DNA of 32,000 nt from Candidatus Saccharimonadota bacterium. GTDB taxonomy: Bacteria > Patescibacteriota > Saccharimonadia > Saccharimonadales > Saccharimonadaceae. The translations under genes and the position numbers were made by a program. Location: the NCBI GenBank assembly GCA_016700015.1, contig CP064995.1, forward strand, positions 300,001 through 332,000. The letters are read 5' to 3'. Shown one piece after another: positions 6,192-28,485 of the stretch. The stretch's first letter is position 1; the number at the start of each line of letters is the position of its first letter. Below the pieces are notes generated by a model that searched no databases, was not told where the DNA came from, and saw nothing but the letters and a program-made list of their open reading frames with translations.

Positions 6192-6205
6192 GTACTAACG
6201 AAGAG

Positions 6206-6251
6206 CGCCCCGCACCACCTGGCTCCCGTAGGAGCTGGTAAGTGCGGGGCG
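6206..6251 (-). terminator. long GC-rich hairpin downstream of the cassette-1 ORF
   Basis: CGCCCCGCAC (6206..6215) pairs with GTGCGGGGCG (6242..6251). An inner GCTCC/GGAGC helix lies between them. The hairpin sits 18 nt after the minus-strand stop, followed by only a weak T-rich tail (CTCTTCGTT). Confidence 0.55.
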
Positions 6252-6268
6252 ATCCCCAGAGCGAGAGG

Positions 6269-6556
6269 TCAGGCGGCGGTGTTGAGTCGCACGTAGACCT
6301 CTGCGCCGATTCCGACGTCGTGGAAGGCGTCGGCCTCCCGGGCGGCCGCGGCGAGTCGCTTCTCCGCCTGCTCGAGCTTGTCGAGCAGGGCGTCGACGAC
6401 CTTGTCGCCGCGCCCGGCGTGGGTGGCCCGGGCGACGGCGCTGGCGGCCGCGTCGACGGCGCGCTGGGCGGTCGCGACGTCGGCCTGGAGCTGGTTCCAC
6501 CGGGTCAGGTTGTTCTTGGCCTTGTCGATGGTCGGCATCGAAACGGGGTACGACAT
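6269..6556 (-). CDS. orphan high-GC protein, 95 aa, Ala-rich and predicted helical (cassette 1)
   Basis: Met31 of track ORF 6269..6646, preceded by AAAGAGG-N6. By my count 90 of 95 codons end in G or C. The other frames give Arg-rich or Gly/Val-rich shadow ORFs. Sample line 6361..6420 is 43/60 G+C, against 29/60 for a nusA line. Confidence 0.7.
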   Translation of the reverse strand: MSYPVSMPTIDKAKNNLTRWNQLQADVATAQRAVDAAASAVARATHAGRGDKVVDALLDKLEQAEKRLAAAAREADAFHDVGIGAEVYVRLNTAA

Positions 6557-6617
6557 TGGGTGCCTCTTTCTCTGGGGTGCATACTGCTCGGCAAGTCGCC
6601 TCGCAGCTTCAGTATTC

Positions 6618-6646
6618 ATTATAGCACAACCACAATAAAATGTCAA
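6618..6646 (-). promoter_or_regulatory. perfect TTGACA-N17-TATAAT promoter, with -35 formed at the IS junction
   Basis: On the minus strand, TTGACA is the complement of 6641..6646 and TATAAT the complement of 6618..6623, with a 17-nt spacer. Bases 6643..6646 of the -35 box belong to the IS terminal repeat. Confidence 0.65.
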
Positions 6647-7641
6647 TAGCTACGTAATGGTTCACACCCTTGGCAACAAAAAGCAGGCCTCTCTACACTA
6701 GATAGCGTCAACTAATCTATGTAAGGAGAGCCTGCTATGAGCTATTCTAGCAGCCCCTATGCACCCCGTGCCAGACGAGACGCCGTCAACCGGGTGCTCC
6801 GCGGGGAGACACGAGTGGCAGTAGCGCGTAGTGTGGGTGTCCACCCTTCCACCATTGGTAAGTGGATGTGCAAACGAACAGCACTGCACTTAGATGGTCG
6901 TGAGTGTATCCCTACACTTCCATCCATTGCCCATACCCACCCTAACCAACTACAACCAGAGGTTGTGGCTGCCATTATTCACGAACGCGAACGGAGCGGA
7001 AGATGCGCTGAGCTCGTCTGGTATGAACTGCGCGACCAAGGTATTGCAGTGAGCCTCTCTAGCGTCAAACGGACCTTACGTCGTCATGGTCTCACACGCA
7101 TTCAAAGCAAATGGAAACGGTACCGCCCACCTGTCCCGCGCCCCGAACCAGACACACCAGGCGCGCTTGTGCAGATGGATACCATCCATTTTATGCGACC
7201 AGATATGACGCGCTTCTACGTATTTACCCTCATCGATCTCTATTCCCGAGCGGTATATGCCGAGTATGCTCCTCGCTGCACGCAGCAAGCGAGTCTTGAG
7301 GTTGTTGCAAGGGCACAAGACTATCTCGGAATACCTTTTGCCATAGTACAGACCGACAACGGCGGTGAGTTTGCGGAAGCATTCCGTGCGCAACTCAGCA
7401 TGTGGGGTATTGTGGTGCGACACACTCGGTTGCAGCGCCCTAACGACAATGCGCACATTGAGCGGTTTAACCGCACAATCCAGGACGAATGCCTTTCGCC
7501 ATTCGTCGATGAACAAACCGTACCAGGCAAAGTAGCTTGGTATCTTATCTACTACAACTGGCACCGAAGACATCTTGGCATACATGGCAAGTTACCCGGG
7601 CAGATGTTGCCATGGCGCTGAACCTAGTACGTAGCTATTGA
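6643..7641 (+). mobile_element. IS481-family-like insertion sequence (999 bp)
   Basis: Perfect 14-bp terminal inverted repeats: TCAATAGCTACGTA at 6643..6656 and TACGTAGCTATTGA at 7628..7641. Further imperfect matching extends inward to GGTTC/GAACC. They bracket a single DDE transposase ORF. Confidence 0.85.
6737..7621 (+). CDS. DDE transposase (integrase-core/rve fold, IS481-like single ORF)
   Basis: AAGGAG SD. N-terminal HTH (VAVARSVGVHPSTIGKW). Catalytic triad contexts are VQMDTIHF, VQTDNGGEF and NAHIERFNRTIQDE. Confidence 0.9.
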   Translation: MSYSSSPYAPRARRDAVNRVLRGETRVAVARSVGVHPSTIGKWMCKRTALHLDGRECIPTLPSIAHTHPNQLQPEVVAAIIHERERSGRCAELVWYELRDQGIAVSLSSVKRTLRRHGLTRIQSKWKRYRPPVPRPEPDTPGALVQMDTIHFMRPDMTRFYVFTLIDLYSRAVYAEYAPRCTQQASLEVVARAQDYLGIPFAIVQTDNGGEFAEAFRAQLSMWGIVVRHTRLQRPNDNAHIERFNRTIQDECLSPFVDEQTVPGKVAWYLIYYNWHRRHLGIHGKLPGQMLPWR

Positions 7642-7703
7642 AATAATCTACTAAGTTCTACCTTAGAGGCTACGAAAGGAACAACAGGGTACACGTTGAG
7701 AGT

Positions 7704-8465
7704 TTACTTAGCGAAGTATTCTTCCCAAAAATCAAGATCAACGTAGTACTGATGCGGATCGGTTTTATTGATATATACCCTTGCCGGAGTGCCTACCTGA
7801 AGCCATTTATAATATGACCAAACTTTATCAGATGAGTACCGATCGAGCATGCCATCTTTTGACACGGTTGGCGCTACATGTATCGTTGTGAATACCGTGC
7901 CTTTGCCCACGTGACCGATTGTCGTGCCAACAACTGTTGCTTCGATCGCAGTACCGTTAGCGATGAGCTGTGAAATAGCGCGCGTACGTAACATGTTTTT
8001 GCGCCACGCAATGAAGCCGCCAATGATAACGCTAACACCAAAGATGAACGAAAAAACTAGTAGCAAAATATATAGCGGAAGAGCGATTTCGGGTGAGTAG
8101 CCTAGCTGTGGATTTGAGGGGTCGTAAAGCACAGTGTGGGATTTACCAATCTCTGCCTCATCGTTTCTCCGGTGTGAAGTGCTGTGCGTGAGTATGGAGT
8201 AGACTATGTCATTAACCTTGTACTCGCAAATGTAGCCACCGACAACCTGGGGGTTATATGCGTATTCAGTGACATGGCAAGTAGCTTGTGGCCACGTAAG
8301 GTGTTGTGGGCGAGGTTCCTGAGAAAAGGTAATCCATAGCAATAGACCTGCACTGACAAGAAACGTCGCTAGCCAAACCGCGCCGAATTGTTTGCGGGGC
8401 ATGACGTAAGGATTGCGTGATAGGTATTTTAGTAAGGTATGCATAACCATAGTAAATCCTAACAC
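7704..8465 (-). CDS. membrane protein, DUF3592-like architecture (two TM segments each followed by a beta-rich module)
   Basis: 253-aa ORF with a GTG start after GGAGG. TM segments are AVWLATFLVSAGLLLWITF and LPLYILLLVFSFIFGVSVIIGGFIAW. The family call rests on architecture only. Confidence 0.7.
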   Translation of the reverse strand: MLGFTMVMHTLLKYLSRNPYVMPRKQFGAVWLATFLVSAGLLLWITFSQEPRPQHLTWPQATCHVTEYAYNPQVVGGYICEYKVNDIVYSILTHSTSHRRNDEAEIGKSHTVLYDPSNPQLGYSPEIALPLYILLLVFSFIFGVSVIIGGFIAWRKNMLRTRAISQLIANGTAIEATVVGTTIGHVGKGTVFTTIHVAPTVSKDGMLDRYSSDKVWSYYKWLQVGTPARVYINKTDPHQYYVDLDFWEEYFAK

Positions 8466-8516
8466 ATACCTCCAGTCAGATACAATAAAGACCGATCAGA
8501 TGACTAGCACTCTCAC

Positions 8517-8545
8517 TTGACGAGTGCCAACATGCCCTGTATAAT
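8517..8545 (+). promoter_or_regulatory. sigma70-type promoter TTGACG-N17-TATAAT
   Basis: TTGACG at 8517..8522 and TATAAT at 8540..8545. It is followed by a 40-nt leader with a small GGGT/ACCC hairpin and an AGGAGGG SD. Confidence 0.65.
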
Positions 8546-8585
8546 CGAGCGTGTAAAGGGTGAAAAACCCTGACAGGAGGGCAGT

Positions 8586-11051
8586 ATGCCAGACGATTTT
8601 GCAGATTTTATTTCACATCTTACCGAGAACGCTAAGCTGAGCGTGCAGCACGCTGATGCGATTGCTCGTGGTAATGGCAGTGCGTATATAGGTACAGAAC
8701 ACCTATTGCTTGGATTATTGGCGCAGGGGAGTAGCATGGGCGCAAAAGTATTGGCTGATGCAGGAGTTACGCTGCCGCGCGCTGAGCAGGCTCTAGGGCT
8801 TGAGCCGCAGCAGGTCGTCGTTAGTACGGGTGCGGTAGGGCTAAGTGAGACAGCTCTACTGACACTACGTATGGGGTGGGAAGTCGCGAAAGAGTACAAC
8901 CAAGACTTCTTGGGCACTGAGCATATTCTATATAGTCTGCTTCGACAAAGTAATGCACGCGCCACTACTTTGTTAAGAGAATTAGGAGTGGACGTGGATG
9001 ACGCTATGAGCGAAATTGAGAGCTATCTCGATCGTACGCGCGGCGAACATGGGGATGTTGCAACCGAGCCCAAGCAGCGCACTGTGCGTGGCGGCGCGCT
9101 AACTACATTTGGCATTGACCTAACATCAAAGGCCAGTGCGGGAGAGCTCGACCCGATGATAGGTCGCGCTAAAGAGTTAGAGCGCATGATTACTATTTTG
9201 AGTCGACGTACTAAAAATAACCCAGTATTGATTGGTGAACCTGGCGTCGGAAAAACAGCAATTGTAGAGGGCCTGGCGCAGCGAATCGTGCAAGAGCAGG
9301 TGCCCGATCATTTACTTGACCGTCGTGTGATTATGCTCGATATGGCAGCGATGATCGCCGGAACGAAATATCGTGGTGAGTTTGAAGACAGGCTAAAAAA
9401 AGTTATTAGCGAGATTAAGAAACAAGGTAACATTATCGTATTTATCGATGAGCTCCATTTGCTTGTGGGAGCCGGGGCAGCCGAGGGTAGTATGGACGCC
9501 GCCAATATCCTAAAGCCGGCGCTTGCACGAGGCGAACTGCATATGATCGGCGCTACGACACTTGACGAATATCGTAGGCACATAGAGAAAGATACGGCAT
9601 TAGAGCGTCGTTTCCAAACGATTATCGTTAAGGAACCGACCACGAAAGACACAATTGCTATATTGAAAGGTTTGAAGGTTTACTACGAGAAGCACCATGG
9701 TGTCAGTATGAGTGACGATGTACTCGAAAGTGCTGTCTATATGAGTGATCGCTACATCGCCGATCGGTTTATGCCAGATAAAGCGATTGATGTGATTGAT
9801 GAAGCAGCGGCGAGAGTGCGAGTTCGAGTAGGGCACCGCCCGAGTCGCCAACGTGAGCTCCTGAAAGAACTCAAAGGCCTCAATGAGAGAATGGATGATG
9901 CCGTGGCAAGCGAGGACTACGAGCGAGCAGCGCTCTATAAGCAGCGTGTCAGTCAGATTAATGCCAAGCTAGAGGCTGAGCGAGAAGCGATGGAAAGTAA
10001 GGTGCCAATTGCGCTGACCGAAGATGATATCGCCCATGCAATCGCAATCATGACACACGTGCCGGTCGAGAAGGTGCAAACCAGTGAAGCGCGTTTACTT
10101 AAATCGCTCGAGAAACACCTTGGCAAGTATATTATTGGTCAACAGGAAGCAGTAGAAAGGGTAGCGAAGGCAATTCGTCGTACCAGGAGCGGTATTGCCA
10201 GCCAGAAGCGTCCGATAGGTAGCTTTGTGTTTATGGGACCAACCGGAGTTGGCAAGACTGAGCTCGCGAGAGTGCTTGCACGAGAAGTGTTTGGCAGCGA
10301 CGAGGCACTCATTAAAATCGATATGAGTGAATTTAGCGAACGCCACACCACCAGCCGTTTGGTCGGTGCTCCAGCGGGCTATGTTGGCTACGAAGATGGT
10401 GGTAAGCTTACTGACAAAGTACGTCGTCAGCCTTACAGTGTGGTGTTGTTCGACGAAATTGAAAAAGCTCACCCCGATGTGTTCCAACTACTACTGCAAC
10501 TACTCGAAGACGGTCAACTCACAGACGCAAAAGGCCGGGTGGTGAGTTTTCGCAATACGATCATTATCCTTACCAGTAACCTAGGTGCTGATAAAATGAT
10601 GAGAGAAAGTGCCCTTGGGTTCCAAGCAGATACGTCGAAGAAGCAAGTGAACGACCTACACCAGAGAAACGCTAGCTACGCGCGTGAAGCACTCGACAAA
10701 TTCATGCGACCCGAGCTTATCAATCGCTTTGACGGTATTGTAACCTTCCGTGCTCTGACGCGACAAGAGGTGGGCAAAATATTCGATCTCCTTGTTGGTG
10801 AAATCCGTATGCGCTTAGTGCGCCAAGGGTTGGGGCTCGTAGTAAGGCCACATGCAAAATCCTACCTTATCAACAGGGGCTACAGTGCGAAGTTTGGTGC
10901 TCGCGCGCTGCGTCGTGTTATAGAGGATGAACTAGAGCATCTTATTGCCGAAGGAATCTTAGGCGGAAACTATGAAAAAGGCGCTATACTGGAAGTAAGT
11001 ACGCGGGAAGGGGCACTCTATATTGAACAACGAATCGAAGCAACCACCTAA
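8586..11051 (+). CDS. clpC: ATP-dependent Clp protease ATP-binding subunit ClpC
   Basis: 821 aa with Clp_N repeats ([22 protein letters not shown]), Walker A sites GEPGVGKT and GPTGVGKT, Walker B sites FIDELH and LFDEIEKAH, and a UVR-like linker ([12 protein letters not shown]). Confidence 0.93.
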
Positions 11052-12030
11052 GTCGACCCACCAAGTGCGCCGTGCACTCATACTGTTGGTGGTAACATTG
11101 GCGATTAGTGCCTTTCTTATTCTTTACGGCCAGCGCGGCGTCGATATCGTACTTTCGCGCCTGTATCAGCCATCACCACAGATCGCGGATATTAACGCAC
11201 GGCTTGCTATGACGCACCTCGGCACTGATTTGTTTTACGCTAGTGCACCGAAAATTGAAGATAAAACTCAGTTTAACGCTAGCTGCGAAACCGAGGAAAG
11301 GACAATAGCAATTCTTGGCTGCTATTTCCGACGGCATATTTATTTGTTTGACGTAAAGAATAAAGAATTAGATGGCACGCTCGAAGTGACGGCTGCACAT
11401 GAAATGCTGCACGCGGCGTATGAACGGCTTAATTTCTTCGAACGGACACGAGTTAATAGTTTAATAGAGGCGGAATACGCTACACTGCAAGACAGCCCAT
11501 CGCTGAAGCAAGTGATGGCGTACTATGCAAAATCAGAGCCGGGTGAGGAAATTAACGAACTTCACTCTTTGCTTGGTACGACAGTCGTGCACCTTTCGCC
11601 GGAGCTTGAAGCCTACTATTCACAATACTTTAAAGATCGTGCGAGTGTTGTCGCTCTCAATGCTAAATACAACGCTGTTTTTGACAGCTTGAGGAAAAAG
11701 TCCGATGAGCTGCAAAAACAATTGGTCGCACTGCGTGCTCCGCTCGAATCCGATCTTGACCAGTACGAGTCAGATCGTGAGCAAATAGAACTAGACATAG
11801 CGTCATTCAATGAACGTGCAAAGACAAATGGCTTTCCTTCGCAGTCTAGTTTCACAGTAGCTCGAAACTCGCTCATTATGCGAGTTGAAACTATGAATAC
11901 TCGGCAGGCTGATATTAATCAGAGGGTAAAAGATTTCAATACCATTGTCGAGCAAATAAATGCGCTCGCAGTGCGTGCGAATGAGCTTAGTAGTAGCATT
12001 AATGGTGCCACGACCACGAAGGGGCTATAG
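11023..12030 (+). CDS. membrane-anchored HExxH protein with C-terminal coiled coil (putative metallopeptidase)
   Basis: TTG start overlaps the clpC end by 29 nt; an alternative GTG lies at 11065. It has an N-terminal TM (ALILLVVTLAISAFLILY), the motif TAAHEMLHAAY and a heptad-rich tail. Confidence 0.65.
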   Translation: MNNESKQPPKSTHQVRRALILLVVTLAISAFLILYGQRGVDIVLSRLYQPSPQIADINARLAMTHLGTDLFYASAPKIEDKTQFNASCETEERTIAILGCYFRRHIYLFDVKNKELDGTLEVTAAHEMLHAAYERLNFFERTRVNSLIEAEYATLQDSPSLKQVMAYYAKSEPGEEINELHSLLGTTVVHLSPELEAYYSQYFKDRASVVALNAKYNAVFDSLRKKSDELQKQLVALRAPLESDLDQYESDREQIELDIASFNERAKTNGFPSQSSFTVARNSLIMRVETMNTRQADINQRVKDFNTIVEQINALAVRANELSSSINGATTTKGL

Positions 12031-13382
12031 TGGCGAAAACACGATCCTCATTTGTCTGCCAAAATTGCGGTGCAAGTTACCCAAAATGGGTAGGTAAATG
12101 TGAAAACTGTGGAGAATGGAATTCGCTTGTAGAGCAGGCTGTTCAGTCAACTGGTAACTCTGCGGTGGCCCGCGGTGCTTATAGTGGTAAGGTACTCGCG
12201 GCTCAGTCTATGAAATCAATTCGCGCTGAAGATGAAATTCGACGCATGAGTACAGGCATGGTCGACCTTGATATTGTACTCGGCGGCGGCGTATTACCCG
12301 GCGGAGTAATTCTACTGGCAGGCCAGCCCGGTATCGGTAAAAGCACTCTCCTTATGCAGGTTGCGGGGACGGTTGCGGCCAACTATCCTGTGCTCTATGC
12401 TAGTGGCGAGGAATCAGCGAGTCAGGTAAAATTACGCGCTACTCGACTTGGTGCCGATGTAGATGATGATCTCGCGTTTGTGGCGAGCACTAGTGCTGAT
12501 GACATTGCTGCGACGATACGAAGCGGCAAATACAAGCTGGTTATTATCGATAGTATCCAGACGCTTAGCCTTGACGAAATTACAAGTGCTCCGGGCACTG
12601 TCAGCCAGATTACCAACTCTGCAAACGTTATCATACGCGCGGCCAAGGAAAGTAATGCCGCTGTCGTACTAGTGGGCCATGTTACAAAGGAGGGTAGTAT
12701 CGCCGGGCCAAAGGTACTCGAGCACTTGGTCGATGTGGTACTGCAGTTTGAGGGTGATCGCTATGGTGGCTTTAAAGTAGTGCGTGCTATTAAGAATCGC
12801 TACGGCAGTACTAGTGAGGCCGCAATTTTCGAAATGGTAGATGACGGATTAAGAATTGTCGAGAACCCTTCAGCAGCGTTGCTCGCTGAACGTCATGACA
12901 GTGACGGCTCGGTAGTGCTAGCGACGCTCGAAGGAAACCGACCTATTCTAGTAGAAATTCAAGCACTTGTCAATTCGACGAATTTCGGGTATCCTAAGAG
13001 GACGGCGAGTGGGTTTGATATAAACCGCCTCAATCTACTCATCGCGGTGCTCGAGAAGCGCACCAAACTGAATTTATCTGACAAAGACATCTATATCAAT
13101 GTCGTTGGTGGGTTACGGCTTCAGGACCCGGCGGCTGACCTTGCCATTGCAATGGCTATTGCCAGCGCGGCTGCTGGGCGAAAGCTCGATACTGGGCTGG
13201 TGGTTTTTGGCGAAGTAGGGCTTGGGGGAGAAATTCGTAGCGTCAGCCATGTCGATCGCCGCGTGGCCGAGGCGAAAAAATTGGGCTTTACTAAAGCCCT
13301 CGCACCCGAACAGGGTAAAAATACATTTATCAAACCAGTGAGTGACCTCCGTCATGCACTTATCGACTATCTGAAAAGCTAG
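12030..13382 (+). CDS. radA: DNA repair protein RadA/Sms
   Basis: GTG start overlaps the upstream stop by 1 nt. It has a zinc finger (CQNCGASYPKWVGKCENCGEWNS), Walker A (GQPGIGKST), the KNRFG-type motif (AIKNRYGSTSE) and a Lon-like C-terminal domain. Confidence 0.93.
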   Translation: MAKTRSSFVCQNCGASYPKWVGKCENCGEWNSLVEQAVQSTGNSAVARGAYSGKVLAAQSMKSIRAEDEIRRMSTGMVDLDIVLGGGVLPGGVILLAGQPGIGKSTLLMQVAGTVAANYPVLYASGEESASQVKLRATRLGADVDDDLAFVASTSADDIAATIRSGKYKLVIIDSIQTLSLDEITSAPGTVSQITNSANVIIRAAKESNAAVVLVGHVTKEGSIAGPKVLEHLVDVVLQFEGDRYGGFKVVRAIKNRYGSTSEAAIFEMVDDGLRIVENPSAALLAERHDSDGSVVLATLEGNRPILVEIQALVNSTNFGYPKRTASGFDINRLNLLIAVLEKRTKLNLSDKDIYINVVGGLRLQDPAADLAIAMAIASAAAGRKLDTGLVVFGEVGLGGEIRSVSHVDRRVAEAKKLGFTKALAPEQGKNTFIKPVSDLRHALIDYLKS

Positions 13383-13399
13383 TCAAAAAGGAAATTATT

Positions 13400-14353: not shown

Positions 14354-14361
14354 ACCGCTAG

Positions 14362-16983: not shown

Positions 16984-17099
16984 GTAACTCTCTTCCCATA
17001 AGCAATATTAGTTTTTATTATAGCACTCGCACGCCAGTGCGATAAAGTATATTTTGTGCTACTATTTGACCAGAAGAAACAAGAAAGGAGAGTTTCACT

Positions 17100-18308: not shown

Positions 18309-18319
18309 AGGAGTATACA

Positions 18320-18406: not shown

Positions 18407-18414
18407 GGAGAAAT

Positions 18415-19176: not shown

Positions 19177-19193
19177 ACAAATACACAAATATC

Positions 19194-19202
19194 TGATATA
19201 AT
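19194..19202 (+). promoter_or_regulatory. extended -10 promoter TGaTATAAT, leaderless geometry
   Basis: TGATATAAT at 19194..19202, with 8 nt to the ATG at 19211 and no SD. Confidence 0.55.
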
Positions 19203-19210
19203 AAATAGAT

Positions 19211-19858: not shown

Positions 19859-19863
19859 AGAGT

Positions 19864-21897: not shown

Positions 21898-21913
21898 CTA
21901 CAGGTAAGCAAAC

Positions 21914-21960
21914 AGCCCCCGGTGACCCGGAGGCTGAATGCCTGCGACGGGACGGGGGCT
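21914..21960 (-). terminator. long GC-rich hairpin at the 3' end of the cassette-2 ORF
   Basis: AGCCCCCG (21914..21921) pairs with CGGGGGCT (21953..21960). Inner CCCG/CGGG and GGC/GCC helices lie between them. The hairpin overlaps the stop codon and is followed on the minus strand by GTTTGCTT. Confidence 0.5.
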
Positions 21961-22219
21961 AGTAGGTGCCGACCTTTACGGTCGTTCCGACGTACATGTA
22001 GAAGTCGGAAAAACGGAACGCGATTGTCGTCCCACCCCTGGTCTTGATTTCGAAGACCACGTGGTTGGCGGGGTTCGCGTTTGTGAGCTTGTAGAGTTCA
22101 TTTTCGAACTCGCGGACGACATCTCGCGGGACGGCGAGCGCATGGTCGGTCAGCTGCGCTTCGCGGTACCCGTGAAACTTTACGGTTGCGCCGTTCAGGA
22201 GATGGGTGAACTCGGGCAT
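21959..22219 (-). CDS. orphan GC-elevated protein, 86 aa, beta-rich (cassette 2)
   Basis: Met8 of track ORF 21959..22240, preceded by AAAGGAG-N5. Sample line 22021..22080 is 36/60 G+C and third codon positions are G/C-biased. No recognised motif (MPEFTHLLNGATVKFHGYREAQ...). Confidence 0.65.
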   Translation of the reverse strand: MPEFTHLLNGATVKFHGYREAQLTDHALAVPRDVVREFENELYKLTNANPANHVVFEIKTRGGTTIAFRFSDFYMYVGTTVKVGTY

Positions 22220-22271
22220 GGGTGCTCCTTTAGTGGTCAAGGTGCGTAGTGGTGAAACTATTCTGAATTAT

Positions 22272-22300
22272 ATTATATCAAAATACAGCGTATTTGTCAA
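22272..22300 (-). promoter_or_regulatory. perfect TTGACA-N17-TATAAT promoter
   Basis: On the minus strand, TTGACA is the complement of 22295..22300 and TATAAT the complement of 22272..22277, with a 17-nt spacer. It sits in an AT-rich divergent promoter region. Confidence 0.65.
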
Positions 22301-22343
22301 TACATCGGTGAAATCTGGTTGTGTTTCTGGTATGATAGACAAA

Positions 22344-23150
22344 ATGTATAGTGGTACAACTTTTCGTAAACAATCCGGCGGGTTTATTGGGGTGCACCAA
22401 AAAATCGATAGGGTGGCGCGCCGCACATTGCAATCTATACCAGGTGTTGGCCCGGGGTTTCCGGCAATTAAAGACATATTGCATTTCGAAGGCAATAACG
22501 GCCCTGATGGCATAAAGCGTAAAAGCCCCAGCCAAGACGAGCCGTGGCACTACATTGACCCTACGAAGCCTGACGATCGGCAGCTTGTCGACATGATTGC
22601 AGACCACCACCATAACCTTGTGGAGGCACTGCGGACAGGCAATGAACAGCGGGCGGCGTTTGAAGCGGCGTGGATTGCTCATGCTATCGTCGACGGGCTG
22701 ACGCCAGCGCACCACTATCCACTTGGCGACAAGATCGAAGAATTGTGGGGTAAGCCCAAAGAAGAGCGCCTAACGATCAAAGAAAAAAACTACATCAAAG
22801 GCGAGAGCGCTCGCGACACGCTCGGCAAAAACTGGCAATACTGGGGTGCAAAGGGAGTGTTTGTGACCCATGTGCTGTTTGAGTTTGGGGTGGCGACAAG
22901 TATTAAAACTACACGATTTACAAAACTCGGCATGTCGCCAGACTGGGTACGCCAGGCCGAAACGATGGGCCTGGAGCGACTGTTTTTGCGTTCGGTGCAG
23001 CGGATTTACGCGCTTGATATGTATCACAACTTCTGGCAGGAAGGCTGGACAGCGAAGCTAGCTAGGCAAGCGCGCACGCAGTTGGTGCCGGAAATTATAC
23101 GCATTGTCACGTATGCTTGGTACAGCGCGTATAAAGAAGCGGGGTTATAA
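22344..23150 (+). CDS. hypothetical His-rich protein (268 aa), possibly phospholipase C / P1-nuclease-like metal site
   Basis: I prefer ATG 22344, which lies 7 nt after TGgTATGAT (22328..22336). An in-frame alternative is at 22332. The track start at 22206 overlaps the cassette-2 start and promoter. His clusters are ADHHHNLVEAL and AHAIVDGLTPAHH. The product call is weak. Confidence 0.65.
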   Translation: MYSGTTFRKQSGGFIGVHQKIDRVARRTLQSIPGVGPGFPAIKDILHFEGNNGPDGIKRKSPSQDEPWHYIDPTKPDDRQLVDMIADHHHNLVEALRTGNEQRAAFEAAWIAHAIVDGLTPAHHYPLGDKIEELWGKPKEERLTIKEKNYIKGESARDTLGKNWQYWGAKGVFVTHVLFEFGVATSIKTTRFTKLGMSPDWVRQAETMGLERLFLRSVQRIYALDMYHNFWQEGWTAKLARQARTQLVPEIIRIVTYAWYSAYKEAGL

Positions 23151-23696
23151 GTGTATATTCGGATAATTGCCGGCAAATATGGTGGCCGCAAAATCGATGC
23201 ACCCGACAACAGCCGTACTCACCCTATGGGTGAACGCGTGCGCAATGCCATGTTTAATAGCCTGGGTAGCCGCATAGAAGGTGCAGAGGTACTCGATGCA
23301 TTTGCTGGTACGGGAGCAGTAGGGCTTGAGGCAGTTAGCCGAGGTGCGAAGCACTGTACATTTATAGAACGCGATAAAATTGCGCAAAAAGTATTGGCAA
23401 AAAATGTGGTATTGCTAGGTACCGAAAATGACACGACAATTGTAAATAGATCTGTTGCTTCATGGATCAATGAAAATTTGGATGCTCGCTACGACATAAT
23501 TTTCGCCGACCCGCCATACCACGACTTGCAGTTATCCACAGTCTCGTTACTTTTTGGGCTTCTCAAACCAAACGGGCTTATGGTATTATCCCATACAGGA
23601 AGAGGTGAGGGACCAAATCTGCTAAACGGAATTGTTGTGGTGGACAATCGTAGTTATGGATCTGCATACCTCACCTTCTTCCGCCGAGAATCATAG
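23151..23696 (+). CDS. rsmD: 16S rRNA (guanine966-N2)-methyltransferase
   Basis: GTG start directly after the upstream TAA. RsmD pattern: RIIAGKYGGRKI, RPMGERVRNAMFNSL, VLDAFAGTGAVGLEAVSRGA, and the DPPY motif in FADPPY. Confidence 0.88.
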   Translation: MYIRIIAGKYGGRKIDAPDNSRTHPMGERVRNAMFNSLGSRIEGAEVLDAFAGTGAVGLEAVSRGAKHCTFIERDKIAQKVLAKNVVLLGTENDTTIVNRSVASWINENLDARYDIIFADPPYHDLQLSTVSLLFGLLKPNGLMVLSHTGRGEGPNLLNGIVVVDNRSYGSAYLTFFRRES

Positions 23697-23715
23697 GACC
23701 AAACGGTCCTTTTTT
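23696..23715 (+). terminator. rho-independent terminator
   Basis: GGACC-AAAC-GGTCC followed by TTTTTT. Confidence 0.8.
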
Positions 23716-23724
23716 GATTATGCT

Positions 23725-23752
23725 TTGACCTCTGTTTTGTCTGCGCTATACT
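23725..23752 (+). promoter_or_regulatory. sigma70-type promoter TTGACC-N16-TATACT
   Basis: TTGACC at 23725..23730 and TATACT at 23747..23752. An ATG lies 8 nt downstream at 23761 but is out of frame with the long ORF. Confidence 0.55.
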
Positions 23753-23776
23753 AGCCAGGTATGACGAGTCGCCTTT

Positions 23777-24382
23777 TTGCGTGAATCCCCACTGGTTGTT
23801 GCCGCCCAACAGTCGCATGACACGTGGCGGGGGTTTGATGAGCGGCAAAAACGAGCTGCAGTCGCTGCCTCTGCAGTCACCTTTGGTCGTCTTGGTCTTC
23901 GGTTGGTTGTAGAGGCCGCGACTCGTACTGGTAGGTTGTCGCGCAAGCAGCGTTTTGTTGCTAATTTAGCGCTTGATATGGCAGATAGTATCGACGGCAA
24001 AATAGCGAGACATTTTGACGCTGTGACACCGTTCGGCAAAGTTGCCGACCCGCTGGCTGATAAGATTGATTTTGCTATTCAGGAATACGGTAGAGTTATG
24101 CGTGGTGAGCTGGATGCCCCGACCGCTGCCGTGCGTAGCGCCCGCGACCTTGCATCCACTCATGTGCGCCACGAACAAAGCTTACGAGCCGCCCGCGGCG
24201 AGATTGCCGATGCCGATACCGGTGCACGGCCATTGAACAAGTGGACGTCTGCTTTTCGTGCCGCTTCTTTGCGCGTAGATGATTTATTTCCTGGTAGTAG
24301 ACTGGCGCAGGGAATGCAACATACGGCGACTGCCGCGCTCATTGCGTCGGGTTTATCAAATGTCAAAGAATATCGTCGATAA
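23777..24382 (+). CDS. protein with CDP-alcohol phosphatidyltransferase signature, atypically non-hydrophobic
   Basis: TTG start as in the ORF track. There is an exact match to D-x2-DG-x2-AR-x8-G-x3-D-x3-D (DSIDGKIARHFDAVTPFGKVADPLAD, nt 23984..24061). The start is uncertain; see findings. Confidence 0.6.
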   Translation: MRESPLVVAAQQSHDTWRGFDERQKRAAVAASAVTFGRLGLRLVVEAATRTGRLSRKQRFVANLALDMADSIDGKIARHFDAVTPFGKVADPLADKIDFAIQEYGRVMRGELDAPTAAVRSARDLASTHVRHEQSLRAARGEIADADTGARPLNKWTSAFRAASLRVDDLFPGSRLAQGMQHTATAALIASGLSNVKEYRR

Positions 24383-24395
24383 GTCAATACAAAAA

Positions 24396-24418
24396 GGCGA
24401 GCAAACGCTCGTCTTCTT
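24396..24418. terminator. bidirectional rho-independent terminator
   Basis: GGCGAGC-AAAC-GCTCGTC (one G-U pair), flanked by AAAAA upstream and TTCTT downstream. It lies between the + strand CDS and the minus-strand tRNA. Confidence 0.6.
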
Positions 24419-24422
24419 GGGT

Positions 24423-24507
24423 TGGTGCGGATGACTGGACTTGAACCAGCACGCCCGAAGGCATATGCTCCTAAGGCATACGTGTATACCAATTTCACCA
24501 CATCCGC
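24423..24507 (-). tRNA. tRNA-Leu (anticodon UAG), CCA encoded
   Basis: Manual cloverleaf: acceptor GCGGATG/CATCCGC; anticodon arm TATGC-CTTAGGA-GCATA; long variable arm TGCCTTCGGGCGT; T arm GCTGG-TTCAAGT-CCAGT; then ACCA. Confidence 0.9.
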
Positions 24508-24600
24508 ACGGGGTGTGAATGTATTTTAACAGATATACTAAAAAAGTGAAACGTATCAACGCTTATGGTATACTAATGGTAATGAAAAAACGAGGGAATA

Positions 24601-26229
24601 ATGAGTAAAATCGCTTCTTACCTTAGCGGTCACTTGGCGGGTGAAGTGTCAACGCGCAGCGATGTACGCGAAGCAATAAGTACAGACCTTGGTATTTTGA
24701 AACTAAAACCAGACATGGTTATTTACCCACGAAATACTAATGATATCCGAAAAGTTTGTCGATTTGCCTGGCAGTTAGCCGAAAAAGGCCACACTCTGCC
24801 TGTGACGGTGCGCGGTGCTGGCACCGATAGTACTGGGGCGGCACTGGGTAAGGGAGCTGCGGTCGTCATGACGGCTCACATGAACCGTATTTTTGAGTAC
24901 GAGCCCAAGCAAAAACTCGTCCGTCTGCAACCAGGCGTGGCAGTTGGCGCTTTGCAACAGTCACTTGCACTACACGGAACTTCAATCATGCCGCTTGTAG
25001 GCTCACATGCGTTTGGTACGGTCGGCGGAGCAGTAGCCAATGCGGTCGCTGGGTTAATGGCCGGCAAATATGGCACGGTAGACAAAGCTGTCGATCAACT
25101 TGAAGTTGTGTTAGCAAGCGGTGATGTTATACAAACCGGCCGCATAAACAAACGCGAACTAAGCCGACGCAAAGGCATGCAAGGGTTTGTAGGTGATATT
25201 TACCGTGGAATCGACGCTATTATTGAAGAAAACACCGACCTGCTTGATACACTTCGCGCCAACGATGCGACCGGTTACAACACTATTGCTGATGTCAAGC
25301 AAAAAGATGGGAGCTTCGATCTGACACCATTGTTTATCGGTAGCCAAGGCACGCTCGGCATTATTACCGAAATGATTATGCGCGGCGAGTTCCGCAGCCT
25401 TCATATGGGCGTGGCAGCGATGGTGTTTGCAAGTAGCAATACTGCCCGCGATGCGCTAGACGAACTTTGTAGTATGACACCGGCGTTTGTAGAATACTTC
25501 GACGCCGAGCTGTTTGAAACGGCCGCTAAGTGTGGTCGCCAGTACGAATTTTACAAGCGTGCGCTTGATGAAATTAAGGCCCCTGCATCGGTAGTGATTG
25601 TCGGGTTTGACGAATTTAGCGACCGCGTTCGTGCAAAGCGGCTGAAAAAAGTTGTTAAAACATTTGCCAAGTATGAAGATGTCGTATTTTCAACCGCCGA
25701 CGGTGATGAGGCGCAGGATATGCTCGCTGCACTCGACGTTACCTACTATACAGCCCTGCCTGGGGAGCAGAGTGAGGGGGCTCCAGGAATCTTTACTGGG
25801 TTCCACGTTCCTACAGAGCGACTCGAAGATTTTGCAAAGTCAGTTGATTTACTTGCTCAAAAGCATCATATAGCTCTGCCTCTGGCTGGGCATGTGTATA
25901 CTAATACCTATGGGGTGTATCCGACGTTCGATCTTCACAAAGTGGGCGACAAGCAAACAGTGCTCAAGCTCCTCGACGCACTTACACAAACAGTATACTC
26001 ACACGGTGGTACTATGGTGGCCGAAGGTGGCGAGGGCCGACTCAAGTCAAGGTTTATTTATAATCAACTCGACGCACGCATTGTAAAGCTGTATCAAGAA
26101 GTACGTAAAGTGTGTGACCCGCATGGCTATATGAATTCGGGGGTGAAAGAATCAATAGAGCTGCGGCATCTGGCCGAAATGATTCGTGACAGCCACGATG
26201 CCGGACAGTTCGCTCGTTTCGGGCTATAA
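24601..26229 (+). CDS. FAD-binding oxidoreductase (GlcD / D-lactate dehydrogenase-like, PCMH-type)
   Basis: 542 aa with a GAGGGA SD. The FAD_binding_4-type N-terminal domain includes VTVRGAGTDSTGAALG. Substrate unknown. Confidence 0.8.
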   Translation: MSKIASYLSGHLAGEVSTRSDVREAISTDLGILKLKPDMVIYPRNTNDIRKVCRFAWQLAEKGHTLPVTVRGAGTDSTGAALGKGAAVVMTAHMNRIFEYEPKQKLVRLQPGVAVGALQQSLALHGTSIMPLVGSHAFGTVGGAVANAVAGLMAGKYGTVDKAVDQLEVVLASGDVIQTGRINKRELSRRKGMQGFVGDIYRGIDAIIEENTDLLDTLRANDATGYNTIADVKQKDGSFDLTPLFIGSQGTLGIITEMIMRGEFRSLHMGVAAMVFASSNTARDALDELCSMTPAFVEYFDAELFETAAKCGRQYEFYKRALDEIKAPASVVIVGFDEFSDRVRAKRLKKVVKTFAKYEDVVFSTADGDEAQDMLAALDVTYYTALPGEQSEGAPGIFTGFHVPTERLEDFAKSVDLLAQKHHIALPLAGHVYTNTYGVYPTFDLHKVGDKQTVLKLLDALTQTVYSHGGTMVAEGGEGRLKSRFIYNQLDARIVKLYQEVRKVCDPHGYMNSGVKESIELRHLAEMIRDSHDAGQFARFGL

Positions 26230-26398
26230 ATTGTTGCAAACTAAAAAGACGAGCTAAGGCTCATCTTAATAGTTTTGGTGCTCATAAGGTTATTGTTGTT
26301 GAATCAGATATGCTGAAAAAAGATTATATCAGCTGCTAAGTAATTACGACTCTTGCGTAGAACAGCTGAAACATCTCGTTACGAATGACCTAAAGGGG

Positions 26399-26427
26399 TT
26401 GCATAAGTTTAATAACTATGTTATAAT
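26399..26427 (+). promoter_or_regulatory. sigma70-type promoter TTGCAT-N17-TATAAT (TGt-extended), leaderless geometry
   Basis: TTGCAT at 26399..26404 and TATAAT at 26422..26427, with 9 nt to the ATG at 26437 and no SD. Confidence 0.65.
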
Positions 26428-26436
26428 CGATCCATT

Positions 26437-26898
26437 ATGTCAAGAAGTGTTGCGGAAGTTACAGGTAAAATGCCATTCGCTGGAAAGTATATAGTTAAAT
26501 ATTTGTATCAAAAGGGTCGTGAAGCCTCTAGAAACGGTGAGTATACAGGTAAAATTACGAGTGCAACTGCTTTAGGTGCGCTTGCCGTCTTACACGCCGT
26601 GCAGCTTAAAATGGGAATAAGAGAGCTTGTATATGACGGCGGACAAAACCCCGCACTCGTTGGGGTTGATGCACTTTACACAGCTGCGAATGCCATGGTT
26701 ACATACACGCAAGCCTATTTAGCCGCTAAAGTCGTTGCGACAGCGAAAGAGCCTGCGATGGTCACCCCTGAGGGTGTGACATCTCACGATGTCGACCAAG
26801 ATAATAACCGACCAAATATCAAGTTAGGCGTTCCAAGCCCAATGGACTTTATCGTAACTGCGGGTGGTCAAGCTATCTTTCTTGCGACGCTGCACTAG
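26437..26898 (+). CDS. hypothetical protein (153 aa), lower GC than its surroundings by eye
   Basis: ORF with a strong leaderless-type promoter. Ala-rich amphipathic or hydrophobic segments. No recognised motif. Confidence 0.65.
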   Translation: MSRSVAEVTGKMPFAGKYIVKYLYQKGREASRNGEYTGKITSATALGALAVLHAVQLKMGIRELVYDGGQNPALVGVDALYTAANAMVTYTQAYLAAKVVATAKEPAMVTPEGVTSHDVDQDNNRPNIKLGVPSPMDFIVTAGGQAIFLATLH

Positions 26899-27045
26899 CC
26901 CCCACTTGCCACACTTAAATTATATAAAAAGCCCGTAAACTCGCTACCTACCTAAAAATATGTCAGTGGTGTTAAAGACCTGATCCTTAACAGATGAGAA
27001 AAGTCCGATTTTTTGAATTTTACTACTTAAAGACAGGGAATAAAT

Positions 27046-27070
27046 AAAAAAAACGAGCGCAAATGCGCTC
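27046..27070 (-). terminator. rho-independent terminator downstream of tRNA-Leu(CAG)
   Basis: The minus strand reads GAGCGC-ATTT-GCGCTC followed by T8 (complement of the A-run at 27046..27053). Confidence 0.75.
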
Positions 27071-27093
27071 AAATTTCCCGAAAAGTTCGTTTT

Positions 27094-27180
27094 TGGTGCG
27101 GATAAGAGGACTTGAACCTCCACGTACTTGCGTACACTAGCACCTGAAGCTAGCGCGTCTACCAATTCCGCCATATCCGC
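27094..27180 (-). tRNA. tRNA-Leu (anticodon CAG), CCA encoded
   Basis: Manual cloverleaf: acceptor GCGGATA/TATCCGC; anticodon arm CTAGC-TTCAGGT-GCTAG; variable arm TGTACGCAAGTACGT; T arm GGAGG-TTCAAGT-CCTCT; then ACCA. Confidence 0.9.
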
Positions 27181-27227
27181 ATATGTATAACACCTAAAGA
27201 GCGCGTGAATTTTTAGGGCTTGCGGCG

Positions 27228-27358
27228 CTAGCTTCTGAAGCTAGGTCACGTTCCGCGACCCCGCGAGCCAGCCTATCGAGCATAGCTCTCTGGTGACATC
27301 GCCTTGCGAACTGCCGACTGACAGTTCTCACGTCTACCAATTCCGCCATATCCGCATA
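27228..27358 (-). pseudogene. scrambled partial copy of tRNA-Leu(CAG) (5' 25 nt + anticodon-arm-like palindrome, no T arm)
   Basis: 27331..27358 is identical to 27156..27183 (28 nt: tRNA positions 1-25 plus 3 upstream nt). 27228..27244 (CTAGCTTCAGAAGCTAG in tRNA sense) matches the anticodon arm except at two loop bases. About 85 nt of unrelated GC-richer sequence lies between the two pieces. Confidence 0.7.
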
Positions 27359-27518
27359 GATAAAGGACACTACTTAACGCGATATTCCTACGCATTATAC
27401 AACGCGCAGCGCGTCTACGACTATTTACGTTTCGCGCAGCCGTCATAGCTGCATACCAAACTATCATAGCAAATACCAGAGGTGGTGGCAAGAATAGCAA
27501 AAAACTTACACAAACATA

Positions 27519-27547
27519 TTGACAAAAAACACAGCTTGTGCTATAAT
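27519..27547 (+). promoter_or_regulatory. perfect TTGACA-N17-TATAAT promoter (TGc-extended)
   Basis: TTGACA at 27519..27524 and TATAAT at 27542..27547, with a 17-nt spacer. It shares the 15-mer TTGTGCTATAATGAA with the cassette-1 promoter. Confidence 0.7.
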
Positions 27548-27652
27548 GAAATTATGCAGTCAGGAGTGGGGCACCCGCCCCGCCGAAGACCGCACCTGAA
27601 TAATCCATCGCTACACAACCCGCCCCCCCGGTGGGGCAGAGAGAGGTTCATC

Positions 27653-28318
27653 ATGAACCGTACCGCCAACTTCGTCGGGCTCAACAAGGCCGCCAAGGAC
27701 GCCGCCATCAAGGAGGCCGTCGCCAAGGCCGAGGCCGGCTTCGCCGGCCGTCTGGCCTTCGAGGCCAGCACCAGGGCCAACCGCGCCCTCGTCGCCGACC
27801 AGGCCAAGCGGTCGTCCGCGCTGCGGACGATCCACGCCGGCCCGGCCCGGGCGCTGGTCGAGAAGGCCCTGGCGTTCTACGCCGAGGCGCCGCTGGCCGA
27901 ACGTGGTGAGGTCTCGACGACCATCGTCGTGACCGACCCGGTGACGCGCAAGCGTCACGCCGTCCCGGTGCAGCTCCCCCAGCTCATCACCGTCGACCCA
28001 CGCGAGTGGGCCCGCATGGAGGCGCTCGCTGCCCTCCAGGGGACGCCCGGCCTGGACGCCAAGGCGGTCGATTTCGCGCGCGGGCGGTTCGCCCGGGCGC
28101 TCGACCGCGGTGTCGAGCGGCTTGCGCTGCTCAACGGCGGCGTCGAGGTCCCCGACAAGGACCCGCTGCCCGAGCGCAAGCCGAAGGCCCAGGATGCCGC
28201 GCCGGTCGACAAGCCGGCCGAGCCCGCGAGCGACAAGGACTTCGACGCCAAGGTGGCGAAGTTCCTGAAGGAATCTCCGCAGCCGCGGAGCAAGCGGGCA
28301 GCCGCCCGCGCCTCCTGA
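27653..28318 (+). CDS. orphan high-GC protein, 221 aa, Ala-rich with Lys/Pro/Asp-rich tail (cassette 3)
   Basis: Met58 of track ORF 27482..28318, preceded by GAGAGG-N6. From this codon onward almost every codon ends in G/C. Sample line 27721..27780 is 45/60 G+C. An in-frame ATG at 27554 lies 6 nt after the -10 box and is an alternative leaderless start. Confidence 0.75.
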   Translation: MNRTANFVGLNKAAKDAAIKEAVAKAEAGFAGRLAFEASTRANRALVADQAKRSSALRTIHAGPARALVEKALAFYAEAPLAERGEVSTTIVVTDPVTRKRHAVPVQLPQLITVDPREWARMEALAALQGTPGLDAKAVDFARGRFARALDRGVERLALLNGGVEVPDKDPLPERKPKAQDAAPVDKPAEPASDKDFDAKVAKFLKESPQPRSKRAAARAS

Positions 28319-28325
28319 TCCCTCC

Positions 28326-28439
28326 TCTCACCTGAGCCCTTCGGGGCAAAGGTGAGATACAAGTAGCGGTGGAATCCCGGGGCGGCGACGAGTTAGTATG
28401 AGGTACCCAGTCCTCAGCAAACACCGTCGTCGCCCTGGG
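28326..28439 (+). other. two stable GC-rich hairpins in the cassette-3 3' region (possible structured RNA or imported terminators)
   Basis: Hairpin 1 (28326..28357): TCTCACCT/AGGTGAGA enclosing GCCC-TTCG-GGGC. Hairpin 2: a 15-bp stem, CCCGGGGCGGCGACG (28376..28390) with CGTCGTCGCCCTGGG (28425..28439), two G-U pairs, and an apical TGAGG/CCTCA helix. Confidence 0.5.
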
Positions 28440-28462
28440 TAACACCCATCTTCCCGACAGTT

Positions 28463-28485
28463 CACCCCAGCAAGGGGTGTTTTTA
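28463..28485 (+). terminator. rho-independent terminator
   Basis: CACCCC-AGCAA-GGGGTG followed by TTTTTATTT. Confidence 0.75.

Follow-up and report, generated by a model that had tools for sequence, protein, structure and literature searches.

Phage morons, described by Hendrix and colleagues, are autonomous units of promoter, open reading frame (ORF) and terminator that lie between neighbouring genes and usually have an atypical base composition. Here we analysed three units of comparable layout, the cassettes C1, C2 and C3, in a 32,000-nucleotide stretch of a Candidatus Saccharibacteria chromosome (contig CP064995.1, positions 300,001 to 332,000; hereafter the window). On the one hand, the cassettes are similar to morons in having a single ORF with its own sigma-70-type promoter (identified by sequence match) and its own terminator, in the precise insertion of C2 between genes that are adjacent in relatives, in a composition sharply unlike that of the neighbours and in ORFs that are orphans. 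The U-tract of the terminator is canonical only after C3 (28463-28488) and weak after C2. On the other hand, the cassettes lie in a cellular chromosome among housekeeping genes and not in a phage or prophage, they occupy fixed sites across species with a composition held over long divergence, and their promoters match the consensus perfectly. Their coding RNA is also hyper-structured, with pairing between the 5' and 3' ends and a conserved 3' RNA element. Our preferred reading, to which we give a probability of about 0.55, is that they are fixed, moron-like slots that would make abundant, highly structured messenger RNAs (mRNAs) for fast-evolving orphan proteins.

Other described systems share part of this pattern. 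Genomic islets and accessory hot spots that competent bacteria exchange by homologous recombination likewise show presence or absence and allele replacement at fixed intergenic sites flanked by core genes, but as a rule such islets share neither an expression architecture nor a lasting anomaly of composition. Integron cassettes are also small, single-ORF, exchangeable units in defined slots; unlike the present cassettes, each of which has its own promoter, they are promoterless, carry attC and depend on IntI, attI and Pc. No integron integrase was found among the called neighbours, attC not having been the object of a dedicated search, and the sole recombinase among these neighbours is an IS481-family transposase beside C1, present in this strain only. 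Borrelia vlsE is an antigenic-variation expression site with an atypical G+C content. C3 resembles it in having conserved ends around a replaceable central coding segment and a composition far from the genome average, whereas no silent donor cassettes were seen, the cassette alleles are stable and identical across many samples, and the alternative alleles represent ancient families rather than shuffled segments. In contrast to the changes made by diversity-generating retroelements, the allelic changes are whole-segment replacements and not A-specific; no reverse transcriptase occurs among the neighbours with listed Pfam families, no dedicated search for reverse transcriptases or repeats having been made. 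We found no prior description of these cassettes in the literature.

Anatomy and conservation of the cassettes

The first-pass annotation of the window had described three units on one five-part plan, and the promoter, leader, Shine-Dalgarno sequence (SD), ORF and hairpin were all located, on the minus strand for C1 and C2 and on the plus strand for C3. Its view that these are functional-looking genes rather than debris is supported, as are the shared plan and the idea of a recruited set. Exact TTGACA-N17-TATAAT promoters occur three times in the 32 kb against 0.01 expected, a number reached in 0 of 100 shuffles. All three belong to the cassettes and none lies elsewhere in the window, where the best other sites (five) carry one mismatch, in agreement with the earlier statement that no native promoter is perfect at both hexamers. 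Each cassette promoter has an extended -10 (TGnTATAAT), a type that is also found on native genes of the epibiont. The native clpB and a gene of 296 codons have one-mismatch promoters, yet they are not GC-rich. In related loci, 33 genes have a promoter with zero or one mismatch together with an SD, and 22 of the 33 are small ORFs with a G+C content at third codon positions (GC3) of at least 0.77; perfect promoters precede 15 of these 22, against 3 of the 11 others.

C1 lies next to nusA. Its promoter (6618..6646, minus strand) is an exact match with the extended -10 TGCTATAAT, and 61 nucleotides separate the end of the -10 from the ATG. The leader (6557..6617, minus) is predicted by folding to hold a 5' hairpin (~6583-6607), followed by a CCCCAGAG box (~6570-6577), which pairs with the sequence after the stop codon, and by the SD AGAGG upstream of the ATG at 6556(-). 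The ORF (6269..6556, minus) encodes 95 residues with a GC3 of 0.94, and the Ala-rich protein is probably helical. It is followed by an anti-SD box (CCTCTCGCTCTGGGG) and a 3' stem-loop of ~60 nucleotides without a U-tract (6199..6268, minus), for which the minimum free energy (MFE) is -43.7 kcal/mol (z -4.5 against shuffles). Orthologs with 77-89% identity adjoin nusA in L012, L013 and L014 (L numbers denote the contigs and loci compared), and the 29-mer of the promoter is identical in all three. Compensatory changes are found in the stem of the leader hairpin (GCTGC/GCAGT in the window, GCTGT/ACAGC in L012) and in the 3' stem (GCAC/GTGC versus GTAC/GTAC). The ratio of nonsynonymous to synonymous substitution rates (dN/dS) of the ORF is 0.7-1.15, with changes even across codon positions and a mosaic pattern relative to L014. 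Relationship of the C1 protein to the small, helical, secreted proteins of the WXG100/Esx type was rejected, as Pfam WXG100 gives no match at E <= 1 and the centre of the protein reads HAGRGDK, not WxG. A weak coiled-coil match of the C1 family to the PDB profile 5y05 (E 0.009) was treated as compositional.

C2 lies beside recG and has an exact promoter with the extended -10 TGATATAAT (22272..22300, minus), 52 nucleotides between the end of the -10 and the ATG, a leader with a CGCACCTTGAC box (22220..22271, minus), and the SD AGGAG upstream of the ATG at 22219(-). The ORF of 86 codons (21959..22219, minus) has a GC3 of 0.78. A 3' stem-loop followed by GUUUGCUU (21906..21958, minus) has an MFE of -28.9 kcal/mol (z -3.5 against shuffles) and is ~96% identical in L016, which exceeds the conservation of the ORF. 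In L016, from a Candidatus Saccharimonas sp. metagenome-assembled genome (MAG), an ortholog with 76% identity adjoins recG and is likewise behind a perfect promoter; the same site is occupied also in two Logan assemblies, and the exact C2 protein is on record solely from the NCBI MAG. The dN/dS of C2 against L016 is 0.21, with substitutions mainly at third positions, and this ORF is under purifying selection. The gap between recG and g314 is 2-50 nucleotides in L022, L026, L043 and L046, and 437 nucleotides with C2 in the window; C2 is present there in L016 as well. In L039, this junction holds a different unit of two ORFs (2670-3390). This unit has the opposite orientation and its own extended -10 promoter and terminator, and its layout would fit a toxin-antitoxin pair.

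C3 occupies a site upstream of His_Phos_1, SpoU and hisS. An exact promoter with the extended -10 GTGCTATAATG (27519..27547, plus) is followed by a leader (27548..27652, plus) with two GC-rich hairpins and the SD GAGAGG, so that 105 nucleotides lie between the end of the -10 and the ATG at 27653(+). The ORF (27653..28318, plus) encodes a 221-residue protein of the P3a family with a GC3 of 0.93. Past the stop codon stands 3' hairpin 1 (28326..28357, plus), whose 5' side CCTCCTCTC, from ~28322, complements the SD region. It is followed by the conserved 3' RNA element (28363..28451, plus), which consists of a short outer stem, a long CCCCGGGG-initiated stem around a variable hairpin and a tail ending in CTGGGTAACAYCC. 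A canonical intrinsic terminator, CACCCC-AGCAA-GGGGTG with a T-run (28463..28488, plus), closes the unit; it was read from the sequence and is conserved in L019. The 3' hairpins have an MFE of -70.7 kcal/mol (z -6.4 against shuffles), and hairpin 1 shows a compensatory change (CACCT/AGGTG versus CACCC/GGGTG in L019).

Relatives of C3 with 36-42% identity are found upstream of His_Phos_1/SpoU/hisS in L032, L100 and L103. The promoters of L019, L100 and L103 are perfect and have the same -10 context as C3, GTGCTATAATG being common to the C3 relatives. The motifs VDPRKWA and FAEGRF are conserved in the alignment of the P3a family. The AlphaFold model of the C3 protein has a predicted local distance difference test score of 78.8, mostly above 85 for residues 11-160; this confidently predicted core comprises a long helix, a beta-hairpin and more helices, followed by a disordered basic tail. 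The predicted fold has no match in PDB or BFVD. Between the window and L019, the flanks are ~98% identical and the leader is identical save a few bases, while an unrelated GC-rich sequence (P3b) takes the place of the centre of the ORF; the untranslated regions (UTRs) are shared and, within the ORF, so are its first 7 and last 45 codons. Because of this replacement, the dN/dS of C3 is ~1. The view that P3a and P3b are divergent alleles of the same protein had only faint support (hhalign probability 9%), and neither is related to the family found at the site between SpoU and hisS.

The 3' RNA element of C3 shows covariation in 3 of 15 pairs. A covariance model detected it in five more species (E 2e-4 to 0.012), in all cases on the plus strand just upstream of His_Phos_1 or SpoU, and in L021, L034, L039 and L045 it directly follows a cassette ORF of a different family. 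Ten copies have the same fold with differing stem sequences. In these comparisons, the element goes with the locus and not with the protein. In L022 (7693-7962), the C3 slot is apparently without an ORF: a perfect promoter is followed ~170 nucleotides later by the 3' element, with a 9-codon ORF between them. This hints that the scaffold of promoter and RNA may stand without a protein gene. At the far end of the C3 unit, the -10 motif of its promoter recurs, as a second TGCTATAAT is located at 28489-28497, between the terminator and the start codon of His_Phos_1 at 28508 (region 28483-28507); it is probably a promoter for the downstream genes.

In the relatives, the units have a perfect or near-perfect promoter, a similar leader, a GC3 of 0.82-0.96 and 3' stem-loops. 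These parts outlast the ORFs in conservation, and their stems show compensatory changes. The ORFs have diverged to 36-43% identity across the clade or have been swapped for unrelated families at the same sites; ORFs remain open in all orthologs despite heavy divergence, and the SD and ATG are conserved. For the comparison of the clade, a HisRS-anchored scan gave ~27 Saccharimonas-like loci. Most of them have GC islands of 0.67-0.76 on a background of 0.47-0.53, with ORFs of 92-195 residues, GC3 of 0.8-0.93 and promoters with zero or one mismatch, and such islands are ~4 times rarer in non-Saccharimonas control loci. At least three protein families occupy the slots. The junction between SpoU and hisS is empty in the window (29651-29699, 47 nucleotides) and filled in several relatives (L021 9369-9875, L022 9312-9860, L029 2817-3389, L100 ~8390-8960 and L103 1815-2417).

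Composition and RNA folding

The window has an overall G+C content of 50.4%, with sharp GC islands at ~6190-6600 and ~27560-28440 and a weaker one at 21900-22200. The segments delimited by the first-pass annotation for C1, C2 and C3 have 66.7%, 55.0% and 67.8%, and the transcribed parts have 70%, 58% and 69% (z 5.8, 2.4 and 5.7 against background windows of 400 nucleotides). Its high-GC claim thus stands for C1 and C3, which are strong outliers; C2 is moderate in G+C and clear only in GC3, and the 60-nucleotide samples that had been quoted overstate the averages. The G+C contents at the first, second and third codon positions (GC1/GC2/GC3) are 0.73/0.48/0.94 for C1, 0.56/0.37/0.78 for C2 and 0.74/0.51/0.93 for C3, and GC3 is far above GC1, with GC1 above GC2, in every cassette family, whereas GC3 is 0.38-0.58 in the 25 native genes. 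The GC boundaries match the ends of the transcription unit, and the UTRs are GC-rich too. The codon usage is like that of high-GC Actinobacteria, with AAG, ATC and TTC at 100%. A native codon bias linked to expression was rejected as an explanation: in tig, clpP, rpoB, nusA and clpB, codon usage is flat and GC3 is 0.44-0.54.

Even at 36-46% identity, orthologs still have a GC3 of 0.83-0.96. Turnover was assessed at conserved fourfold-degenerate codons of these orthologs. Swaps between G and C number 10-21 per pair against 20-26 identical G/C sites, with A/T at only 15-29% of the sites, whereas the fourfold sites of the adjacent hisS are randomised near 50% GC. The fourfold sites of the cassettes have therefore largely turned over while their GC was kept. 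The flanking recG and clpB have saturated synonymous divergence (dS), and C1 and C2, whose dS is below that of the flanking genes, hold their GC3. On this comparative evidence, the GC-richness is maintained, as is the excess of structure described below, and does not represent a fading trace of recent import. The first-pass annotation had named, as grounds for refutation, close relatives with the same genes at native composition; the relatives do carry the units, but at the same anomalous composition, an outcome that it had not foreseen and that leaves this condition untriggered.

Folding was studied with 17 cassette coding pieces of at most 300 nucleotides, from several families and species. 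With dinucleotide shuffling, the cassettes have a mean z of -2.57 (17 of 17 negative) against +0.02 for native genes (p 5e-6). With shuffling of codon order, the mean z is -2.35 (16 of 17 negative) against -0.22 for native genes and -0.34 for GC-rich genes of phiC31 with a GC3 of ~0.77 (p 1.5e-4 for the phage genes). The codon-order shuffles and the phiC31 genes ruled out that GC content or codon periodicity had produced the excess folding artificially. The sequence after the stop is complementary to the SD region of the leader in C1 (duplex z -3.5) and C3 (z -4.0), and pairing of this kind at p <= 0.05 was found in 8 of 22 cassettes against 0 of 10 control genes. Accordingly, the coding region of C1 and C3 would be closed into a loop. 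A CCCGAC box is present in 6 of 20 leaders against 0.57 expected; it is better read as one strand of the helix between leader and post-stop sequence than as a protein-binding or regulatory motif. In a scan of the window with Rfam 15, only two tRNA-Leu genes reached the gathering threshold, and permissive Rfam scans of the three units gave nothing near threshold.

Origin and rival explanations

C1 and C3 are present on 6-7 independent public contigs (ENA and Logan, from different samples) with 99.9-100% identity across the junctions, and all three proteins are annotated (IPM09_01695, IPM09_01755 and IPM09_01795) on a 1,011,181-bp contig of a Candidatus Saccharibacteria MAG, in agreement with the earlier guess of a Saccharibacteria-like chromosome. 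A word-indexed search of 5.8 billion proteins, of limited sensitivity for remote relatives of C1 and C2, gave a handful of homologs, all in Saccharibacteria-type contexts. When 1.84 billion representatives, sludge metagenomes among them, were searched in full by HMMER with the C3 protein, four matches were obtained, one of which was a spurious repeat ORF; the three others were small proteins and genuine relatives, all at the same locus in other Saccharibacteria. No cassette match was found in GenBank phages by blastn and tblastn, and no cassette relative in IMG/VR viral contigs or JGI metagenome contigs. The cassette proteins have no significant match in Pfam, PHROGs, PADLOC or NCBIfam, and in PADLOC-DB 2.0 none at E <= 0.1 for the three proteins and two relatives. 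A match of another cassette family to a PDB profile of a designed tetratricopeptide repeat was treated as compositional. The neighbours of C1-C3 are nusA, clpB, recG, hisS, tRNA genes and similar genes, with no phage or prophage setting.

In our preferred reading, the three segments are authentic and old components of a Saccharimonas-type chromosome, and each is a self-contained slot for the expression of one gene. A sigma-70-type promoter of maximal strength (TTGACA-N14-TGn-TATAAT) would start a transcript that opens with a 5' hairpin, next carries the SD and a small GC-rich ORF, and closes with very stable stem-loops, at least one per unit. Pairing of the SD region with the sequence directly past the stop would loop the coding region of C1 and C3. 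The intergenic positions of the slots are fixed: one follows nusA, one separates recG from the next gene, and one precedes His_Phos_1/SpoU/hisS. They are inherited clade-wide, with ORFs that are orphan, quickly evolving and exchangeable. The codon-position pattern, the purifying selection on C2 and the motifs and confident core of P3a show that the units encode proteins. Considering that Saccharibacteria are naturally competent (PMC10633639), the exchange would most likely proceed by homologous recombination after natural transformation, with the conserved ends as arms. The GC-richness would most likely come from RNA-level selection that favours messages which are abundant, long-lived and strongly folded. 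The small lineage-specific proteins may serve in conflicts or contacts that involve the actinobacterial host or phages, as their fast turnover and strain-level replacement suggest.

Several points weigh against this reading. Statements on promoter strength, mRNA stability and protein abundance are predictions from sequence, and the analysis covers ~32 kb of this genome together with the homologous regions in relatives. Because C2 is only moderate in GC and has no 5'-3' pairing, the three cassettes may lack a common explanation. The pairing is no longer significant when one cassette per family is counted (p 0.08), and phiC31, the sole GC-rich control for folding, is less GC-rich (GC3 ~0.77) than C1 and C3. 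RNA-level selection would account for the GC-rich UTRs and the excess structure, but alone it leaves the close match to actinobacterial codon usage unaccounted for. No signal peptide was seen by eye in the proteins, which have no recognisable domain, so that a role in interaction with the host is a guess.

Considering their composition, the cassettes could be a recent transfer from a high-GC actinobacterial host or phage, with the GC signature of the donor un-ameliorated after capture behind strong local promoters. Like many actinobacterial terminators, the hairpins that follow C1 and C2 have no proper U-tract, and the codon usage is of actinobacterial type. In addition, wastewater Saccharimonas has been tied to Tetrasphaera-type Actinomycetota by spacer matches of clustered regularly interspaced short palindromic repeats and by analysis of horizontal gene transfer (HGT) (10.64898/2026.09.16.751625), which together with natural competence (PMC10633639) is in line with such a transfer. 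However, no search gave a homolog beyond Saccharibacteria, synteny of the units extends to species in which the dS of the flanking genes is saturated, and fourfold sites have turned over yet remain G/C. Moreover, the conservation of the unit includes its AT-rich promoter of native type and its leader, and the excess RNA structure is not found in ordinary GC-rich phage genes. We consider this reading very improbable and, for a recent event, largely refuted, and the acquisition from host or phage that the first-pass annotation had proposed is unsupported as a recent or traceable event, with no donor homolog and with units syntenic across the clade; an ancient origin from the host, now untraceable, is possible. 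An ancient capture followed by re-supply from an unsampled GC-rich plasmid or phage reservoir, shuttling between host and epibiont with re-import by recombination at the ends, would account for allelic replacement with conserved 5' and 3' ends, for unrelated ORF families in one slot, for the lower dS of C1 and C2 than of their flanking genes and for a composition that matches potential donors. This is improbable as well, although somewhat less so: the HMMER search of the 1.84 billion representatives places the C3 family only at this Saccharibacteria locus, and the reservoir would need the same AT-rich promoter or the same conserved ends. The units may instead be directed at the host, so that massively produced, stable, end-protected transcripts (or DNA) pass through the contact apparatus into the actinobacterial host and are translated by its ribosomes, a bacterial analogue of transfer DNA or mRNA effectors; selection within the host would then preserve codon usage, SD and terminators of host type. 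A GC3 of ~0.9 in a 50% G+C genome would then reflect translational selection in the cytoplasm of another organism, a proposal that we consider as improbable as recent transfer. Consistent with it, the host dialect is kept at equilibrium, the whole transcription unit and nothing beyond is host-like, and the strongly folded messages with protected ends are possibly durable. Conjugation-type type IV secretion systems in Patescibacteria are reportedly the subject of one preprint. A conduit for macromolecules is also plausible, as uptake of host RNA has been described (10.64898/2026.06.21.733656). On the other hand, export from epibiont to host is without evidence, and the high G+C extends to GC1, GC2 and the UTRs, where translational selection by itself would not require it. 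The units are also dispersed among housekeeping genes, no oriT or export signal was identified, and their promoters have the extended -10 that the epibiont uses for its native genes.

Two further explanations concern the RNA and the mutational process. The conserved product could be a structured RNA with incidental or secondary ORFs, above all for C1 and the C3 slot. The promoter, leader and 3' structures are better conserved than the ORFs, the dN/dS of C1 is 0.7-1.15 with changes even over codon positions, the structure excess extends throughout the coding region, and in the L022 slot no substantial ORF lies between the perfect promoter and the 3' element. Against this, every family shows strong codon periodicity (GC3 0.93 versus GC2 0.5), the SD and ATG are conserved with ORFs open in all orthologs, C2 is under purifying selection, and P3a has conserved motifs and a confident predicted fold. 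Among the alternatives we find this the least improbable, and still unlikely. A local bias of mutation or repair without functional selection (GC-biased gene conversion at recombination hot spots, for instance, or a process coupled to transcription) would agree with loci that are recombination hot spots with mosaic alleles, with GC enrichment at all codon positions and in the UTRs, and with boundaries that coincide with the transcription unit. Yet flanking genes that would fall in the same recombination tracts keep a normal GC3, clpB and the 296-codon gene are not GC-rich behind their one-mismatch promoters, and the folding beyond composition is left unaccounted for, which makes such a bias a poor candidate. 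As for a chimeric assembly or a designed, synthetic insertion, an option that the first-pass annotation had kept, the regular architecture and razor-sharp compositional borders would be expected. The independent contigs and the MAG annotation exclude it: sequence and junctions are identical in many independent assemblies from varied samples and assemblers, diverged orthologs on the same plan occur in other species, and we regard it as refuted for C1 and C3. For C2, the 76% ortholog at the same site in another MAG and the two Logan assemblies also speak against it, and overall its probability is negligible.

Neighbouring features and meaning for Saccharibacteria

An IS481-family insertion sequence lies beside C1 at 6653-7631, with an rve ORF at 6737-7621 on the plus strand; the family was identified with NCBIfam (E 2e-53, under the curated cut-off). 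Its terminal inverted repeats (6659-6678 and 7605-7624) are imperfect, and there is an apparent 6-bp target duplication, TAGCTA. The element interrupts the palindrome ATTTCAATAGCTATTGACAT, which abuts the -35 box of C1 and is intact in L014, and it is absent from L012 and L014. Because L009 departs from the window precisely at its outer end (7632), the element is probably multicopy or polymorphic. Near C3, a tRNA-Leu(CAG) gene is located at 27094-27180 on the minus strand. Its 5' 25 nucleotides and 3 flanking bases form a 28-bp direct repeat (27156-27183 and 27331-27358), whose second copy lies ~150 bp away and roughly 160 bp upstream of the C3 promoter. An old integration or duplication at the C3 hot spot could have left this repeat behind. 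Some short-read contigs end near these borders (L008 at 6201, L011 at 6192 and L005 at 28317), and L002 and L004 begin at 27144. Such breaks at the cassette borders and the tRNA repeat fit strain variation or a drop of coverage at GC islands.

A fourth unit on the same plan is found in the same strain just beyond the start of the window, between Vut_1 and GmrSD_C (L006 15639-16010). It has TTGACT-N17-TATAAT with TGn, a leader, an ORF of 77 codons and a hairpin with a T-run, and its G+C is ~0.60-0.65; in L012, L013 and L014, its promoter position drives an unrelated hydrophobic ORF of 44 codons. The family at the junction between SpoU and hisS has a GC3 of 0.83-0.93, basic C-terminal tails and a CCCGAC/GTCGGG helix from leader to post-stop sequence. 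Many cassette proteins have basic C-terminal tails ending in ...AAS, ...AA or ...AMA (RSKRAAARAS, RRPQAVVAAS, VRLNTAA). These tails are probably disordered, and their endings may be an effect of composition or could be a degradation tag or export signal. Finally, the first 12-16 nucleotides past the -10 are alike in unrelated cassettes, roughly G-AAAT-YAYGAT, and the 5' hairpin follows at once (for example at 27548-27563 of the window and in L100, L021, L035, L045 and L039); CACGAT and TCACGAT are enriched among cassette leaders.

Saccharibacteria and other Patescibacteria represent a large and poorly understood part of bacterial diversity, living on other bacteria by mostly unknown mechanisms. 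In this group, the cassettes provide a sequence-defined, clade-wide candidate class of genes with the strongest promoters in these loci. Their importance is suggested by these top promoters, by the protected, hyper-structured messages and by fast-evolving orphan proteins that differ between strains. It has been proposed that codon usage in Patescibacteria is complementary to that of GC-rich hosts, whose RNA is taken up (10.64898/2026.06.21.733656), and the lasting host-like codon usage of the cassettes opposes this rule. The cassettes also offer a clear natural example of a compositional island that persists instead of ameliorating. HGT detection methods in which an atypical GC3 is equated with recent transfer would misread these loci. 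In addition, the fixed slots, with promoter and leader at one end and a 3' RNA element at the other, suggest natural landing pads and expression parts for the genetics of Saccharibacteria.

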